The notes under the pieces are model-generated. The model ran no database searches and was not told the DNA's origin. It saw only the letters and a program-made list of their open reading frames with translations. Shown here one piece after another: positions 26,726 through 62,140 of a stretch of 64,000 nucleotides of DNA (within the stretch, counting starts at the first letter, position 1; the number at the start of each line of letters is the position of its first letter). Location of the stretch: assembly GCF_003790525.1 (NCBI RefSeq), contig NZ_CP033635.1; one strand, written 5' to 3'. Position numbers and translations under genes: made by a program. This DNA is from Escherichia coli. Its GTDB lineage: Bacteria; Pseudomonadota; Gammaproteobacteria; Enterobacterales; Enterobacteriaceae.

Positions 26726-26740
26726 GCAAAAGGCGTGCCA
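26726..26740 (-). promoter_or_regulatory. Sigma-54 (-24/-12) promoter upstream of lafB
   Basis: Minus strand reads TTGGCACgccttTTGCC, i.e. GG-N10-GC matching TGGCAC-N5-TTGC; predicted start ~20 nt upstream of the lafB ATG, with GGAG RBS in between. Confidence 0.5.
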
Positions 26741-39070: not shown

Positions 39071-39406
39071 TTATTTCCCTTCAATGGCCTCTCTGATGCC
39101 GCTGATTTGCAGATTCAGAAAGGTCAGACTGCTTTGATAATCCATACTATTTTGTGAAAACCGCGCCTGCTCGCTGTTCAGCTCCACGGTGTTGCCATCT
39201 TCCGACGGCTGCATCGGCACGCGGTACTGGACATCCACCGCCGCGTTATTTGCCCGTTGCATCTCCCTGGCAAAATCAATATCTTTAGCCTTGAAATTTG
39301 GCGTATCGACGTTCGCCAGATTCGCAGTCAGTAGCTCGGTCCTCTCAAGACGTAACTTCACTGCCTGCGGATGCACTCCCAATGCCTGTTGAAAACTGAT
39401 CCCCAT
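39071..39406 (-). CDS. lfgB: Flagellar proximal rod protein (FlgB homolog)
   Basis: Start placed at ATG 39406 (MGISFQQALGVHPQAVKLRLERTELLTANLANVDTPNFKAKDIDF...), which aligns with the FlgB N-terminus and lies downstream of the predicted sigma-54 start site. Confidence 0.8.
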   Translation of the reverse strand: MGISFQQALGVHPQAVKLRLERTELLTANLANVDTPNFKAKDIDFAREMQRANNAAVDVQYRVPMQPSEDGNTVELNSEQARFSQNSMDYQSSLTFLNLQISGIREAIEGK

Positions 39407-39442: not shown

Positions 39443-39458
39443 AGCAATCGCTGTGCCA
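39443..39458 (-). promoter_or_regulatory. Sigma-54 (-24/-12) promoter of the lfgB operon
   Basis: Minus strand reads TTGGCACagcgaTTGCT, an exact fit to TGGCAC-N5-TTGC; predicted start ~26 nt upstream of the lfgB ATG. Confidence 0.55.
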
Positions 39459-41024: not shown

Positions 41025-41151
41025 CGACAATTCCTTCCCCCATCGCGGAAACGGATTTTCCGCCTGATTCTCAATCCCTTGTTTTTGATTACAAAAATTC
41101 CCGGCACGCTTATTGCACATTCCGCAAAGTAATAAAGACTGGAAGCCACCT

Positions 41152-50283: not shown

Positions 50284-51907
50284 TGCTGGTGATCCATTGT
50301 CTGAGAACTTCGGCTACGCGATCGGTGTCGCTCATGGCCAGTTTTTGCAGGAACTCGAGTTTTACTTCGAGGCCGGAACTCTGGGACGGCAGGCTGTCAT
50401 CGCCGGGCAGCGACGGCAGATCGACGTTTTTGCGTTCCTCTTCCGGCATGGCAATCCACGGTTCGCTGACAGCTTCCGGTTCTGGTGTGATAACCGGCGC
50501 ACGTACCGCCGTCAGCCGTTTCATTACCGGGCGCACCACAAAGAACAGCAACAACAGCGCCAGCAGGCCGCAGCCAATCAGCCGCACCCAGGCCAGCACG
50601 CTGTCGTCTTTCCACAGCGGAATAATTGGTTCGACCGGCACCGCCTGCGGCACAAAGTTAAGCAGCGATAAGGTGAGATTGTCACCGCGCTGGACGTCGA
50701 TCCCGGCGGCATTGTTCAGCAACGCGGTCAGTTGCGTGGTCTGCTCCGGCTTCCAGTTTTTCAGCGCCGGAGCGTTTTGATTGAGCACCACCGCCACGTT
50801 AAGGCGTTTCACCGCAAAGCCGGGATGCTGAATATGCTGGACGCTGCGGTCGTAAGAGTAATCGCGCTTGCTTTCGCTGTGTTTCGAAAGGGCTTCCGGC
50901 GAGCGGTTTTCTTCCGTACCGTTGGTCATCTGATTCGCTGCAATCGGCGGACGGTTACTGAGCGAACCGGGCACACCCATCGCCACCTGATTGGTATCGC
51001 TGTCCAGCACGTTTTCTTCGCGGTTGATTTTCGGCGCGTCGCCGTAGTGTTCCTGAGTTTCATCGATATTACTGAGGTCGAGATCCGGCATGACGCTGAC
51101 GCGGTAATTCCCGCTGCCGACCAGCGAATCCAGCACGTTCGCCACGCTGGCGCGGGTTTTGTCCTGAATATCTTTGAGGATCTGATCGCGTTTACGGGTA
51201 GCGGCTGAAACCGCTTCGCCCGCGCCAATGCCGTCGGTCAGCAGATTTCCCGCCTGATCGACGACGCTAACTTTGCTGGCGTGCAGCCCCGGAATGCTGC
51301 CGGAAACCAGATGCACAATGGCGTTCACCTGGTCCATATTCAGCTTCGCGCCGTAATGCAGACGCACCACCACCGAGGCGCTGTTTTGCGGCTCATCGCT
51401 GACCACAAACGAGCTCTCTTCGTTGAGCGCCAGATGCACCCGCGCGCTCTCCACCGCGTCCAGCGACATAATGCTCTGCGCCAGCTCCCCTTCGAGGCTG
51501 CGTTTGTAGCGCACGTTCTGCACGAACTGGCTGCTGCCGAGCACTTCGTCTTTGTCCATCAGCTCGTAGCCGCTGGGCAAGATCGCCTGCACGCCTTTCG
51601 CGGCAAGGGTCATACGCGTTTTCGACAGTTCATCTTCCGGCACCAGAATCTGCCCGCTTTGCGGGTCGATGCGGTAGCTGAGCTTTTCGCCGTCCAGCAC
51701 GGTGACAATCTGCGACACGGGCAGATTTTCCTGGCGTCCGTAGAGCGAGACGTAGCCGCGATTACCGGTCCACAGTACGCTGACGATAATTGCCGTCGCC
51801 GCAACGGCAAGCCCCACTCCCGCCATCAATGCCCAGCGTTTGTTATCTGCAAGACGCAGTCGAAACGCCGGAAACGCCTGGGTTAACTTCTTTATTTGTG
51901 CATTCAT
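50261..51907 (-). CDS. lfiF: Flagellar MS-ring protein (FliF homolog)
   Basis: 548 aa with N-terminal and C-terminal transmembrane segments and FliF-like periplasmic domain. Confidence 0.9.
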   Translation of the reverse strand: MNAQIKKLTQAFPAFRLRLADNKRWALMAGVGLAVAATAIIVSVLWTGNRGYVSLYGRQENLPVSQIVTVLDGEKLSYRIDPQSGQILVPEDELSKTRMTLAAKGVQAILPSGYELMDKDEVLGSSQFVQNVRYKRSLEGELAQSIMSLDAVESARVHLALNEESSFVVSDEPQNSASVVVRLHYGAKLNMDQVNAIVHLVSGSIPGLHASKVSVVDQAGNLLTDGIGAGEAVSAATRKRDQILKDIQDKTRASVANVLDSLVGSGNYRVSVMPDLDLSNIDETQEHYGDAPKINREENVLDSDTNQVAMGVPGSLSNRPPIAANQMTNGTEENRSPEALSKHSESKRDYSYDRSVQHIQHPGFAVKRLNVAVVLNQNAPALKNWKPEQTTQLTALLNNAAGIDVQRGDNLTLSLLNFVPQAVPVEPIIPLWKDDSVLAWVRLIGCGLLALLLLFFVVRPVMKRLTAVRAPVITPEPEAVSEPWIAMPEEERKNVDLPSLPGDDSLPSQSSGLEVKLEFLQKLAMSDTDRVAEVLRQWITSNERIDNK

Positions 51908-51911
51908 AGGG

Positions 51912-52253
51912 TTAGATCGACATACTCATCAGATCGTTAAATCCGGTGGCGATTTTGTTGCGCACCTGCACCAGCGCGGAGAAAGAGAGCGACGCCTGCT
52001 GGCTGGCGATCATCGCCCCGGCGAGGTCATCACTTTTGCCCGTGTCGACAGCCGTTTGCTGCTGCTCCGCCACCTGCTGGAACTGGTCAACGTGACCGAG
52101 CGCGCCGGACATAATACGGTTAAACGACACGTCCGGGTCGGTGGAACTGAAGGTCATGGCGGGTAGCACTGGCGCCTGGGCGTTGGCCTGCATCCGCTGC
52201 ACGTCCTGCATAATTTGCGCCTGCATGGTGCTGTTGATTGTGGTAATGCTCAT
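51912..52253 (-). CDS. lfiE: Flagellar hook-basal body protein (FliE homolog)
   Basis: 113 aa with FliE-like C-terminus (…ASLSFSALVQVRNKIATGFNDLMSMSI). Confidence 0.85.
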   Translation of the reverse strand: MSITTINSTMQAQIMQDVQRMQANAQAPVLPAMTFSSTDPDVSFNRIMSGALGHVDQFQQVAEQQQTAVDTGKSDDLAGAMIASQQASLSFSALVQVRNKIATGFNDLMSMSI

Positions 52254-52267
52254 TTTTAACTTCCGGG

Positions 52268-53254
52268 TCAGGAGAAAACTTCGATACCGTGCTTGCGCAT
52301 GGAGGCCAGTCGATAGCGCAGTGCGCGCGGGGTAATGCCTAACAGGTCAGCGATTTTGCTGCGGTTGCCCTGATATTTACGCATCAGGTCGGCGATATAT
52401 TGATACTGCGCGCTTCGTCCGTGCTGGCCTAAATCGCCGGTTTCGGCAATGTGGACGGCGGGCTGAACAGGCCATTGCAGTTCACTGTGGTCAGCAATAT
52501 CGGTGTCCGGCAGGCCTAATGCATCCGGGTAAATTACGCCGTCGCGATTTAAAATCATTCCCCGCTGAATGGCGTTTTCCAGTTGGCGAACGTTACCGGG
52601 CCAACGGTAATTGAGCAGCGCACGGCGGGTGGATTCGGACAGGGTGATATTTTTCACCAGCACCGTGGAGTATTTTTTAATAAATGACTCTGCCAGCGGA
52701 ATAATATCGTTCAGACGTTCACGCAGCGGCGGCATGGTAATAGGAATCACCGCCAGACGATAATAGAGATCTTCACGAAAACGTCCGGCGGCAACTTCCT
52801 GCTCCAGGTTTTTATTGGTGCAGGCAATCAGGCGAAAATTGAGTTTGATTTGTCGGTTGCTGCCTAATCGCTCAACCTGTTGTTCCTGCAACACGCGTAA
52901 TATTTTGGCCTGTAGCGCCAGCGGCATTTCACCAATTTCATCGAGCAATAAGGAGCCGTTATTTGCCAGTTCCATTTTTCCTGGCACGCTGGCAATTGCG
53001 CCGGTAAATGCGCCTTTGTCGTAGCCAAATAACGTCGATTCCAGCATATTTTCCGGGATCGCCGCGCAGTTCACGCCGATATAGGGCGCATTATCATTTT
53101 CACCAAAGGCTACGGTGTGAATATATTTCGCCACGCACTCTTTCCCCGCGCCGGTTTCGCCCTGAATGAGCACCGGCACGTTAAAGGCGGCGACACGCTT
53201 TGCCAGAGTAAAAGCGTTAATGCTGGAAGCGGCAGTTGCAATAAGTTCAGACAT
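52268..53254 (-). CDS. lafK: Sigma-54-dependent transcriptional activator of lateral flagella (AAA+ domain plus C-terminal HTH, no N-terminal receiver domain)
   Basis: 328 aa; Walker A GETGAGKE at residues ~30-40, GAFTGA sigma-54 contact motif, C-terminal Fis-type HTH (SKIADLLGITPRALRYRLAS). No coding potential upstream for a receiver domain. Confidence 0.9.
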   Translation of the reverse strand: MSELIATAASSINAFTLAKRVAAFNVPVLIQGETGAGKECVAKYIHTVAFGENDNAPYIGVNCAAIPENMLESTLFGYDKGAFTGAIASVPGKMELANNGSLLLDEIGEMPLALQAKILRVLQEQQVERLGSNRQIKLNFRLIACTNKNLEQEVAAGRFREDLYYRLAVIPITMPPLRERLNDIIPLAESFIKKYSTVLVKNITLSESTRRALLNYRWPGNVRQLENAIQRGMILNRDGVIYPDALGLPDTDIADHSELQWPVQPAVHIAETGDLGQHGRSAQYQYIADLMRKYQGNRSKIADLLGITPRALRYRLASMRKHGIEVFS

Positions 53255-53407
53255 AGGGTGAACAATATAAGTAGCGACAATAATCAGGATGTTCTGAAGC
53301 GTATCACCGGCGGGATTAACAAGTTCGAATTAAACGATAATAAAAACATTATTTGATGGTAAACAATTAGTTAGATATTAATACTGTTAATTTGGACATC
53401 TGTGATG

Positions 53408-53446
53408 CCCCCTCACCCTAACCCTCTCCCCGGATGGGGCGAGGGG
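53408..53446. repeat. GC-rich palindromic intergenic repeat (boxC-like), single copy
   Basis: CCCCCTCACCCTAACCCTCTCCCCGGATGGGGCGAGGGG between divergent lafK and lfiM. Confidence 0.4.
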
Positions 53447-53626
53447 ACAGACCGCAGACTGATTGGCGAAAATCACTCCCATTAAGCAATTAATCGATTA
53501 ATTATTTTTTCACCCTATTAATAATTTGCCCCTTTCACTCCCCCTCTATTTAATACCTCACCTTGTGTCACAGCCGGATTTGCGTGCACAGAAACACCCA
53601 TACCATTACAGCAGAGAAAGTAAGCC

Positions 53627-54478
53627 ATGCTGAAGTACAGTAAAACGCCAGGCATCTTTAAATTAGAAGGTAATCGGCTCGGACGCCCCTACCATCGCCT
53701 GCCGACCCTGTTTACGGGGAATTTTGACGTGATTGATTCGCATCTTGGCAGCTACTTTCTCAAAAAGCATCGCAGCAATATCACCTTAAAAAAGATTGGC
53801 TGCGAAATGGATATTATTAATAAAAACGCCGAACTGATGGTTTCCCAGGTCGGGCATCTGGCGTTTGATATTGATCGCTCCTTATTGTTAATGCTGCTGG
53901 GCAATTTTTATGGTCTGGAGTCCTCTCTTGAAGAGGCGAAAGCGCATAACGGGCTGCCGACCAAAACCGAAACTCGTTTAAAAAACCGACTCGCGCTGGA
54001 TATCTGCACGCTGATATTTAATCTGCAAACCTCCGGTATTGCGCTGAAATTAAAACTGGACAGCAGCACGGTGATTACCCACTGGGCGTATCAATTAACC
54101 TTTACCCTTGCGGGCGATGAAGAGAGCAGTTTCCGTATTTTGCTCGACGACGCCCACACCGATTTTATTTTGAATCTGATCCGCCACAGCGAGCACAGTA
54201 AACCGCAGCAGGTGGCGAAATCCGTTAATAAACCGGCCCTGATTAAAGAAATCATCCGCTCCCTGCCGCTGACCCTGAACGTCAAAATCGCCGAGCTATC
54301 GATGAATGTCGCCGATCTGGCGCAGATAAAAGCCGGGGATATTTTACCCATCTCGCTGGGAGAAACGTTCCCGGTGGCGATTGGGCAATCTGAATTATTT
54401 AGCGCCCTGATTGTGGAAGACAAAGACAAACTGTTTTTGTCGGAGCTGGCGGGCAAGAATGAGAATAGCCATGAGTAA
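53627..54478 (+). CDS. lfiM: Flagellar switch protein (FliM homolog)
   Basis: 283 aa with C-terminal SpoA-like segment (LAQIKAGDILPISLGE). Confidence 0.85.
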   Translation: MLKYSKTPGIFKLEGNRLGRPYHRLPTLFTGNFDVIDSHLGSYFLKKHRSNITLKKIGCEMDIINKNAELMVSQVGHLAFDIDRSLLLMLLGNFYGLESSLEEAKAHNGLPTKTETRLKNRLALDICTLIFNLQTSGIALKLKLDSSTVITHWAYQLTFTLAGDEESSFRILLDDAHTDFILNLIRHSEHSKPQQVAKSVNKPALIKEIIRSLPLTLNVKIAELSMNVADLAQIKAGDILPISLGETFPVAIGQSELFSALIVEDKDKLFLSELAGKNENSHE

Positions 54479-59967: not shown

Positions 59968-60465
59968 TTATACAATGATACGCTCCCCGGCACTAAAATC
60001 CGTTACGTCCCCCGCCCAATCGATGGGATATAACCCCTTCGCGACATCGCGATGAAACGTTGAGAATGGCCAATCACTCACTTGCTTTACCCAGCCATGT
60101 TTTACTGGATTTATATAAATATAATCAACATGATGGCGATAGTCTTTGGTATTGCGGATGGCGTGCTCCCAAAAACGCGGTTGCCAGATATTTTGCAATC
60201 CACAAGCATGGGTGAACTGTTTTTTAATCTCCCGCCAGCGAGAGGAAAAATCATCATCGCTTTCGGGTAATGTCCAGATACAGTGCATATGCTCCGGCAA
60301 AACTACCCAGGCGTTAATTTCAAAAGGTCTGGCTCGCTTAACGTTAATAATGACTTTACGGAGCATCTGGAACTGAGCGGTCAGAAGATGGCTTCGACGA
60401 TTTCGTAGGTTAACCGTGAAAAACCAGGTTCCCCCTTTGATGTAATAACGACGATATTCAGACAT
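59968..60465 (-). CDS. rayT: REP-associated tyrosine transposase (RayT/TnpA-REP)
   Basis: 165-aa translation MSEYRRYYIKGGTWFFTVNLRNRR...VVLPEHMHCIWTLPE... with the HuH motif (PEHMHCIW); flanked by REP elements on both sides. Confidence 0.85.
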   Translation of the reverse strand: MSEYRRYYIKGGTWFFTVNLRNRRSHLLTAQFQMLRKVIINVKRARPFEINAWVVLPEHMHCIWTLPESDDDFSSRWREIKKQFTHACGLQNIWQPRFWEHAIRNTKDYRHHVDYIYINPVKHGWVKQVSDWPFSTFHRDVAKGLYPIDWAGDVTDFSAGERIIV

Positions 60466-60560
60466 GGCGACTCCTTTTTCTCAACGGTAAGAAGAAAAGG
60501 AAAGGTCGGCAATGAGGTGATGGAATAACGGGAAAGCGGCTCGCATAAACGCACAGATTT

Positions 60561-60643
60561 GTAGGCATGATAAGACGCGCCAGCGTCGCATCAGGCATCG
60601 GTGCACAATTGCCGAATCCGGCGTGAACGCCCTCTCCGTCCTA
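60561..60643. repeat. BIME (two REP palindromes) between rayT and yafL
   Basis: GTAGGCATGATAAGACGCGCCAGCGTCGCATCAGGC ... GCCGAATCCGGCGTGAACGCCCTCTCCGTCCTAC. Confidence 0.6.
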
Positions 60644-61390
60644 CAAAATCGTCTCTTCCGTCAAAATCCGCCGCGCGCCTAAAAAATGATCCTGCCAGAA
60701 AGGTTCAGCTAACCGGCTTATCCGAATGGTTTCGCCGGTACGTGGTGACTCGATAAACTGACCGTCTCCCAGATACACCCCCATATGATCGGCTATCTCG
60801 CGGCTGTGAATATGGAAAAACAGCAAATCTCCCCGGCGCAGGTCGTTGTTCGCCACAATCGTTGCCCGATGGTAGTGATACATCTCATTGGCTGTGCGCG
60901 GGAGCTTCGCCTCAAGGATCTTGTTGTAGGCATAAAAAACCAACCCGCTACAGTCGAAGCCTTTATCGGGCCGCGTGCCGCCCCAGACATAAGGCTTGCC
61001 AAGCTGCTGCTCCAGGCGGTGAATCGCCACTTCGGTGATGTTGTGTAGATGGTCGCTGCTTAAGAAATGGTTGTTCTCCGCCAGCGCCTGCCAGCGTCTG
61101 TCACTCGCCTTGAGCGGCGCAGGAAACCATTCTGGATGCTGTTTTATCTGTTCGCGGTTGTGCTGGCGCAGCGCCTTTCTGCTTTCGGCATTGCCTTCCA
61201 CAATATAGCCGGCCTGCTTTTTCAGATGAGTTTGGTACTGTTTTAATAAACGCGCACGGTTTTGCATCCGCTGGCGGGCGGCGTAGCTGAAAGAGATATG
61301 TGATGTGGTGGCGCTGGCAAATGAAGAAAACGGCAAGCAAAGCAACAATAATCCCGACAACACAAAAGAGGGAATCGACGGCAAGGACAT
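60641..61390 (-). CDS. yafL: NlpC/P60-family lipoprotein YafL
   Basis: Lipoprotein signal (…LLLCLPFSSFA) and NlpC/P60 catalytic region (DCSGLVFYAY); start at ATG 61390. Confidence 0.85.
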   Translation of the reverse strand: MSLPSIPSFVLSGLLLLCLPFSSFASATTSHISFSYAARQRMQNRARLLKQYQTHLKKQAGYIVEGNAESRKALRQHNREQIKQHPEWFPAPLKASDRRWQALAENNHFLSSDHLHNITEVAIHRLEQQLGKPYVWGGTRPDKGFDCSGLVFYAYNKILEAKLPRTANEMYHYHRATIVANNDLRRGDLLFFHIHSREIADHMGVYLGDGQFIESPRTGETIRISRLAEPFWQDHFLGARRILTEETIL

Positions 61391-61567
61391 ACTCAATAAT
61401 GGCTGGTCATGCATTGATGTTGCAGTGTATCCCGGCCCGTACCTGAACAAACTTAATAAACCATTATTATAAAATTAATAAATATATTTCAGTTAATTAT
61501 GTAAAAACATCCGTTTATTAAATTACTCATGGATTGTCGCTGTTGCTCATTTGAGCTACAATTCAAG

Positions 61568-61583
61568 CTGAATAAATATACAG
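61568..61583. promoter_or_regulatory. Candidate LexA box upstream of dinJ
   Basis: CTGAATAAATATACAG fits CTG-N10-CAG about 17 nt upstream of the dinJ ATG. Confidence 0.5.
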
Positions 61584-61599
61584 CACAGGAGATATCCCA

Positions 61600-61860
61600 A
61601 TGGCTGCTAACGCGTTTGTTCGCGCCCGAATCGATGAAGATCTGAAGAATCAGGCGGCGGACGTACTGGCCGGGATGGGGCTGACCATCTCTGACCTGGT
61701 TCGCATAACCCTCACAAAGGTCGCGCGTGAAAAGGCATTGCCGTTTGATTTACGCGAGCCTAATCAATTAACTATTCAATCAATCAAAAACAGCGAAGCT
61801 GGCGTTGGTATTCATAAGGCCAAAGACGCCGATGATTTATTTGATAAATTAGGAATTTAA
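61600..61860 (+). CDS. dinJ: Antitoxin DinJ
   Basis: 86-aa translation MAANAFVRARIDEDLKNQAADVLAGMGLTISDLVRITLTKVAREKALPFDL... matches DinJ. Confidence 0.9.
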   Translation: MAANAFVRARIDEDLKNQAADVLAGMGLTISDLVRITLTKVAREKALPFDLREPNQLTIQSIKNSEAGVGIHKAKDADDLFDKLGI

Positions 61861-61862
61861 AT

Positions 61863-62140
61863 ATGATTCAAAGGGATATTGAATACTCGGGACAATTTTC
61901 AAAGGATGTAAAACTTGCACAAAAGCGTCATAAGGATATGAATAAATTGAAATATCTTATGACGCTCTTATCAATAATACTTTACTGCTTCCAGCTGTTT
62001 ATAAAGACCACCCGCTGCAAGGTTCATGGAAAGGTTATCGCGATGCTCATGTCGAACCGGACTGGATCCTGATTTACAAACTTACCGATAAACTTTTACG
62101 ATTTGAGAGAACTGGAACTCACGCGGCGCTATTTGGGTAA
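61863..62140 (+). pseudogene. yafQ: yafQ toxin gene interrupted by a single-base frameshift
   Basis: N-terminus MIQRDIEYSGQFSKDVKLAQKRHKDMNKLKYLMTLL is YafQ. After CTCTTATCAATAAT the frame shifts; the remainder (INNTLLLPAVYKDHPLQGSWKGYRDAHVEPDWILIYKL...AALFG) continues in another frame to TAA at 62138-62140. Span is 278 nt, not a multiple of 3. Confidence 0.6.

Follow-up and report, generated by a model that had tools for sequence, protein, structure and literature searches.

We have examined the LafK activator of the Escherichia coli Flag-2 flagellar locus as it is encoded in a 64,000-nucleotide stretch of DNA (the window; contig NZ_CP033635.1). Annotation was taken from the record of strain SMS-3-5 (NC_010498.1), which is 100% identical to the window over positions 51900-53700, and in which PGAP lists the identical open reading frame as WP_001292208.1, a 'sigma-54 interaction domain-containing protein'. 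The gene and its surroundings contain the following features.

51912..52253, minus strand: lfiE (FliE homolog), starting 14 bp past the lafK stop; ORF list and PGAP
52268..53254, minus strand: lafK coding sequence, 328 aa, ATG start; ORF list, PGAP (SMS-3-5) and Pfam
52304..52405, minus strand: HTH_8 (PF02954), Fis-type DNA-binding, LafK residues 284-317; Pfam E 2.3e-8
52517..52723, minus strand: AAA_lid_14 (PF25601), residues 178-246; Pfam E 1.1e-19
52739..53239, minus strand: Sigma54_activat (AAA+; PF00158), residues 6-172; Pfam E 1.3e-63
Residues 102-109, minus strand: Walker B, LLLDEIGE; motif positions
52997-53014, minus strand: GAFTGA (sigma-54 contact loop), exact, residues 81-86; motif positions
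53138-53161, minus strand: Walker A, GETGAGKE, residues 32-39; motif positions
53255..53626, no strand assigned: lafK-lfiM intergenic region, 372 bp, non-coding; three-frame translation
About 53403..53460, no strand assigned: copy of a dispersed G/C-rich hairpin repeat; genome counts and inverted repeat
53627..54478, plus strand: lfiM (FliM/FliN family), divergent from lafK; ORF list and PGAP

[quoted passage not shown] With its stop 14 bp ahead of lfiE, lafK is placed at the head of a lafK-lfiEFGHIJ operon, and none of the genes in the SMS-3-5 Flag-2 locus is flagged as a pseudogene. The lfhA end of the locus is adjoined by rayT, a REP-associated transposase gene, in both SMS-3-5 and 042. Within the same part of the window, which spans rayT and yafQ at about 59968-62140 (252902-255074 of the record), yafQ, the toxin gene of dinJ-yafQ, is frameshifted in SMS-3-5.

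The earlier note on this DNA had described LafK as an activator that starts about 30 residues before Walker A, carries GAFTGA and a C-terminal HTH, and has no N-terminal regulatory domain, and this description is borne out: the motifs and HTH_8 lie at the positions given above, a Pfam scan of the 328-residue protein finds no N-terminal domain, and the ATG is the earliest possible start downstream of an in-frame stop. With an AAA+ domain bearing Walker A and Walker B, and with GAFTGA, LafK has the sequence characters of an enhancer-binding protein. It does not qualify as a response regulator of the NtrC family, as it has no phospho-accepting receiver and the annotation of the Flag-2 locus shows no adjacent histidine kinase. 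Walker A has alanine as its fifth residue in every E. coli LafK sequence inspected, whereas threonine takes this place in the orthologs of Citrobacter, Hafnia, Budvicia and Atlantibacter (GETGTGKE) and in the Vibrio, FlrC and FleR proteins used for comparison (G-x-S-G-T-G-K-E). The alanine is probably harmless, as this position varies in other AAA+ proteins.

The lafK-lfiM intergenic region must hold the promoters of both genes. All three of its minus-strand frames are closed by stops over the 372 bp, and its GC content is 41% compared with 51% for the window, in agreement with the earlier description of an AT-rich spacer without a minus-strand coding frame. The repeat that had been noticed there is also real, and is a copy of a hairpin repeat that occupies a median of 13 sites per genome in 5,399 genomes. 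The full 81-bp query (window 53395-53475, the repeat copy together with its flanks) matched in 57 genomes only, and most other strains have a REP/BIME pair at this intergenic site instead, as seen in alignment with O111 and YA-1. An Rfam search of the intergenic region gave a sub-threshold chance match only.

One reading of so short a protein is that it is a strain-specific truncation, a pseudogene or the product of a mis-called start, and in strain YA-1 PGAP does call a pseudogene ('hypothetical protein', 94 nt) between lafK and lfiM, in the orientation of lafK. We reject this call as a domain relic; it sits on the REP/BIME pair, which is absent at the SMS-3-5 site. Relics of a receiver were sought by tblastn of six receiver or N-terminal domains (those of FleR, FlrC, Vibrio LafK, Aeromonadaceae LafK, and Pseudomonas fragi P0136, P0139) and of Vibrio MotY against the whole 64-kb window, and the best match had an E value of 0.24, with none of these chance-level matches falling within the intergenic region. 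Neither three-frame translation nor tblastn reveals an upstream exon-like segment, which the earlier note had considered as a way in which its description might fail. The same searches bear on the proposal that the receiver has been split off as a separate protein that is encoded in the locus and docks on LafK. The six domains find only chance-level matches in the 64 kb, the annotation of the Flag-2 locus lists neither a response regulator nor a kinase, we found no point in favor of such an arrangement, and we consider it very improbable.

The short form of LafK is widely shared. The region is found in 1,276 of 5,426 complete E. coli genomes, and in four annotated strains the protein has either 328 residues (SMS-3-5, O111:H- 11128 and YA-1) or 326 residues (042, the strain on which the definition of Flag-2 is based). 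The nearest protein clusters are all 326-328 aa long, one of them alone comprising 1,606 sequences, and the Enterobacterales orthologs, which span at least four families, are 324-348 aa with the same three Pfam domains; they come from Citrobacter, Leminorella, Enterobacter, Atlantibacter, Scandinavium, Pseudescherichia, Siccibacter, Budvicia, Pragia, Hafnia, Pantoea, Erwinia and Regiella. Between SMS-3-5 and O111 there are 43 synonymous and 9 non-synonymous differences in lafK, and the resulting dN/dS of 0.058 identifies it as a selected, working gene. Set against these observations, together with the closed upstream frames and the lack of any receiver relic by tblastn, the idea of a truncation, pseudogene or mis-called start has scarcely any likelihood. 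The orthologs are equally short, and the short LafK is therefore the ordinary state and no peculiarity of this sequence, which settles the doubt in the earlier note as to whether it was normal for Flag-2: E. coli and related bacteria normally have the receiver-less protein, and it is conserved among them.

Activators of this kind are familiar from other systems. HrpR and HrpS act as a hetero-oligomer in the control of type III secretion, and FleT of Rhodobacter sphaeroides, the product of the first gene of a fliE-containing operon, has no DNA-binding domain. A 2011 survey of sigma-54 activators grouped LafK with PspF, HrpR/HrpS and FleT as 'type Ic', without a signal-recognition domain (PMC3162934), HrpR/HrpS and FleT being set beside LafK here by description. 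The absence of a signal domain from LafK is thus already catalogued and known in substance. The published statement fits the enterobacterial protein literally, and the Vibrio protein keeps a degenerate receiver, as described below.

Some longer proteins in the collection resemble LafK with additional domains. We reject P0047, P0065 and P0118 (462-463 aa) and P0078 (521 aa), which carry receiver or ACT domains, as assembly chimeras in which the N-terminal part of E. coli NtrC or TyrR is fused to the C-terminal part of LafK on short metagenome contigs, with the joins at the conserved activator motifs FREDLYYRL, PPLRER and WPGNVRQLEN. Such NtrC::LafK and TyrR::LafK chimeras could mislead surveys of domain architecture. 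P0009 (446 aa) is likewise rejected as a longer LafK, and is a lafK-lfiE read-through fusion.

The earlier note had also called the architecture PspF-like, which holds for the layout of the protein but not for its sequence or its gene position. PspF, like LafK, is an AAA+ core followed by an HTH, without an N-terminal domain and about 325-330 aa long. However, the best match of LafK among solved structures is to the AAA+ domain of Vibrio cholerae FlrC (4QHS, E 1.3e-74), followed by NtrC1 (about 1e-66), FleQ (about 1e-63) and the more distant PspF (about 5e-53), and LafK falls well below the cut-offs of the curated PspF families (235.8 versus 443.55 bits for TIGR02974 and 205.4 versus 529 bits for NF008622). 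PspF is also encoded within the psp operon, where PspA acts as its negative regulator, whereas LafK is in a flagellar setting (lfiE-J and lfiM-R) in which no PspA-like gene is annotated. No NCBIfam family matches LafK at its cut-off, and the best partial matches, to NifA and FlbD, reflect the shared core only.

Outside E. coli, the best tblastn matches in PLSDB are a chromosome-2 gene of Vibrio campbellii, Pseudomonas aeruginosa fleR and Aeromonas caviae flrC, each at 48%. Two PLSDB entries that are labelled as plasmids, NZ_CP050465.1 (V. campbellii, 2.06 Mb, with lateral flagellar genes) and NZ_AP026896.1 (A. caviae, 4.94 Mb), are chromosomes, and both are almost unannotated there. A homolog search of 1.84 billion representatives returned scores that do not separate orthologs from paralogs, because the AAA+ core is so conserved, and which are informative only when combined with gene context. 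The order of genes in P. aeruginosa is fleQ-fleS-fleR-fliE-fliF-fliG, and the lateral region of V. campbellii contains, in this order, fliM_L (divergent), a motY-like gene, a gene for a 444-aa activator, fliE_L, fliF_L and fliG_L; the slot upstream of fliE is also seen in an Aeromonadaceae MAG and in P. fragi. Sequence and gene order therefore put LafK in the FleR/FlrC slot, and by these two measures it is assigned to the FlrC/FleR-LafK lineage. FlrC (Vibrio and Aeromonas) and FleR (Pseudomonas) share about 46-50% identity with LafK over the core and the same position before fliE, but they differ in having a canonical receiver (the DD pair, phospho-Asp, Thr and Lys) and an adjacent kinase, FlrB or FleS.

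The closest comparison is with LafK of Vibrio, where the lateral flagellar genes are sigma-54 dependent. The Vibrio and E. coli proteins are 48% identical over all 328 residues, share the AAA+, lid and HTH_8 domains, and are both encoded in the slot before fliE or fliE_L, and we regard E. coli LafK as orthologous to the LafK of other lateral systems, with moderate clade support. The V. parahaemolyticus and V. campbellii proteins differ in being 443-444 aa long with an N-terminal pseudo-receiver, and motY_L lies just upstream of the gene; in E. coli the divergent lfiM is upstream, and LafK starts at the equivalent of Vibrio residue 123. This Met1 aligns 3-5 residues ahead of the AAA+ domain, with the receiver and linker cleanly missing. 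Relative to Vibrio, E. coli is without motY_L and also without the first third of lafK at its 5' end, and a single deletion could explain the two absences.

The N-terminal domain of the Vibrio protein is itself degenerate. V. campbellii LafK (444 aa) gives a weak Response_reg match (E 3.5e-4, residues 7-113), and in alignment other residues stand in place of its acidic pair, phospho-Asp, conserved Thr and conserved Lys, whereas FleR and FlrC keep all four. Its homologs, fragments aside, are 436-521 aa long (nearly all 437-468) with a patchy Response_reg signal, and are found in Vibrio, Grimontia, Enterovibrio, Photobacterium, Thaumasiovibrio, Aeromonadaceae, Gallaecimonas, Thalassomonas, Thalassotalea and Marinobacter. 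A degenerate receiver of about 120-145 aa is present in LafK-type proteins of Vibrio, Aeromonadaceae, Alteromonadales, Marinobacter and P. fragi. In the Aeromonadaceae MAG, flhB-flhA is followed by the gene for a receiver-bearing LafK of 450 aa and next by fliE, and P. fragi has a 468-aa activator beside fliE in which the N-domain is fully degenerate; no adjacent kinase was seen at the lateral loci examined. The N-domain of these long relatives nevertheless aligns with the FleR and FlrC receivers, including the conserved G-A-x-D-Y-L-x-x-P-F segment. The alignment that the earlier note had proposed, with orthologs from Vibrio, Aeromonas and strain 042, thus sets a protein of nearly the same length in 042 against LafK proteins that keep a degenerate receiver in Vibrio and Aeromonadaceae.

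In a neighbor-joining tree of 315 core columns, the enterobacterial proteins form a clade with bootstrap support of 100 that groups first with P. fragi P0136 (68), followed by the Vibrio-type clade (40) and by P0155 and P0139 (64 and 73), all of these being separate from FleR and FlrC; the deep nodes have weak-to-moderate support (40-73%). The near relatives outside Enterobacterales all carry the N-domain, apart from P0155 (368 aa, from a genome with a fragmented flhA), and loss is the parsimonious reading because nearly every near relative keeps the domain. The loss of the receiver most likely took place in the common ancestor of the Flag-2 loci of enterobacteria, and the domain was most likely non-functional beforehand. 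Loss of an ancestral receiver had been offered as an alternative in the earlier note, and it is the better-supported reading in that the enterobacterial clade nests among receiver-bearing proteins, although the support from the tree is moderate only.

Short activators in the slot before fliE are also found in other lineages. A Steroidobacteraceae MAG (L004, 2663-5038) and an ENA contig (L005, 3312-5011) encode receiver-less proteins of 336-345 aa, each preceded by a second activator gene. A Pseudomonadales MAG (L006/L007, 1772-5400) has fleQ, a HisKA/HATPase kinase gene (251 aa), the receiver-less P0201 (350 aa) and fliE, in which P0201 starts 6 bp past the kinase stop, such that a histidine kinase is encoded beside an activator without a receiver for it to phosphorylate. 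Their occurrence in unrelated lineages, and the weak support for the deep nodes of the tree, would suit a model in which LafK was ancestrally domain-less, like PspF, and the N-domain of about 120 aa in Vibrio, Aeromonas and Pseudomonas was gained later. We consider this improbable, in that a homologous domain of receiver fold, which aligns with those of FleR and FlrC, is common to all of the nearest long relatives, and a single loss is a more parsimonious explanation than repeated gain of one fold at one junction. In the tree, moreover, the remaining short proteins are scattered singly among long ones, which suggests that the receiver has been lost from this slot repeatedly and independently.

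We see about an even chance that enterobacterial LafK is the end point of a stepwise decay, in a single orthologous slot before fliE, of a two-component receiver. This decay would run from a canonical receiver with its kinase (FleS-FleR and FlrB-FlrC), through an orphan pseudo-receiver (LafK of Vibrio, Aeromonadaceae, Alteromonadales, Marinobacter and P. fragi), to none (Enterobacterales). In polar systems the slot is filled by an activator with a canonical phospho-accepting receiver that is paired with a kinase; in the lateral-type systems just named the receiver is kept in degenerate form, with no adjacent kinase at the loci examined; and in the enterobacterial ancestor a clean deletion most likely removed it to within 3-5 residues of the AAA+ domain. 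The explicit series from canonical receiver to pseudo-receiver to none within a single gene slot is a modest addition to what was known.

The presumed targets of LafK can be considered from the sigma-54 promoter sequences in the window, of which three are well placed.

39444..39458, minus strand: TGGCACAGCGATTGC, exact sigma-54 consensus, 37-52 bp before lfgB, whose annotated start is at 39406; presumed LafK target
26726..26740, minus strand: TGGCACGCCTTTTGC, exact sigma-54 consensus, 32-47 bp upstream of lafB (fliD); presumed LafK target
41102..41116, plus strand: CGGCACGCTTATTGC, sigma-54 consensus with one mismatch, 35-50 bp before the first variable-region gene (41152); possible LafK target

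The exact sequence TGGCAC-N5-TTGC occurs only twice in the 64 kb, before lafB and lfgB and in the correct orientation. At one mismatch or fewer there are 11 matches in the window compared with 6.6 +/- 2.7 in shuffles, which is not an enrichment, and the argument for these targets rests on the position and orientation of the sites and not on the number of matches. The site before the variable region, a glycosyltransferase cluster, suggests that flagellin-modification genes may be co-regulated with hook and basal-body genes. A search for a 12-mer activator site common to the upstream regions of the three promoters did no better than shuffles, and a loose sigma-28 pattern scan gave noise only. 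A consensus scan of the lafK-lfiM intergenic region found nothing convincing for sigma-70, and there is no good sigma-54 consensus before lafK or lfiM, the best being a 7/12 match at 53585-53600 (minus strand). The lack of a sigma-54 site here agrees with the LafK-independence of the fliM_L operon in V. parahaemolyticus (PMC3930126) and the sigma-70 dependence of the class I lateral genes of Aeromonas (PMC4481668).

We think it likely that LafK is a normal, functional Flag-2 activator of the FlrC/FleR-LafK lineage that consists of the AAA+ and Fis-type HTH domains only, the receiver having been lost. The functions of the Walker motifs, GAFTGA and the HTH are well established in the sigma-54 activator family, and since all are intact, LafK should bind DNA, form a ring and open sigma-54 closed complexes with ATP. 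Having no input domain in cis, it would be expected to assemble and hydrolyze ATP whenever it is made. The dose of LafK, set by a non-sigma-54 promoter in the lafK-lfiM region, would then decide the firing of the lfgB, lafB and variable-region promoters. As the annotated locus also includes no kinase, the simplest interpretation would be that LafK is always competent and is dosed by transcription of lafK, in line with the constitutive activity, unless controlled in trans, that the earlier note had proposed. The anatomy of LafK, its conservation, the purifying selection, the kinship with FlrC and Vibrio LafK and the promoter matches are observed here; the constitutive activity, the assignment of promoter targets and the direction of change, as a loss, are what we infer from the sequences. 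Some sigma-54 activators of the NtrC type need the receiver in order to assemble, so that loss of the domain could lower LafK activity rather than free it.

A further consideration is that LafK may be restrained by a protein acting in trans and not merely by its level of expression. Receiver-less or atypical activators provide precedents in PspA-PspF, HrpV-HrpS and FleN-FleQ, and the locus encodes an uncharacterized 'transcriptional regulator', ECSMS35_RS01370, at the LafZ position, together with several hypothetical proteins. In V. parahaemolyticus, LafV represses surface-sensing genes when LafK is present (PMC9303241). However, no PspA-, HrpV- or FleN/FlhG-like gene is annotated in the Flag-2 locus, and we regard restraint in trans as possible but rather unlikely. 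Such a restraint would be compatible with an always-competent LafK dosed by its own transcription, and does not exclude it.

The short LafK is the standard, selected form of this activator, and not a lesion or an annotation error. The control of Flag-2 in enterobacteria is accordingly to be sought in the transcription of lafK or in a partner acting in trans, and not in a phosphorelay, and the comparison with Vibrio LafK offers a natural series of receiver-domain decay. If the stepwise decay is true, E. coli LafK would be naturally 'unlocked', and ectopic expression of lafK alone should switch on an otherwise silent Flag-2 system. Expression of lafK would then be a simple handle on the Flag-2 locus.
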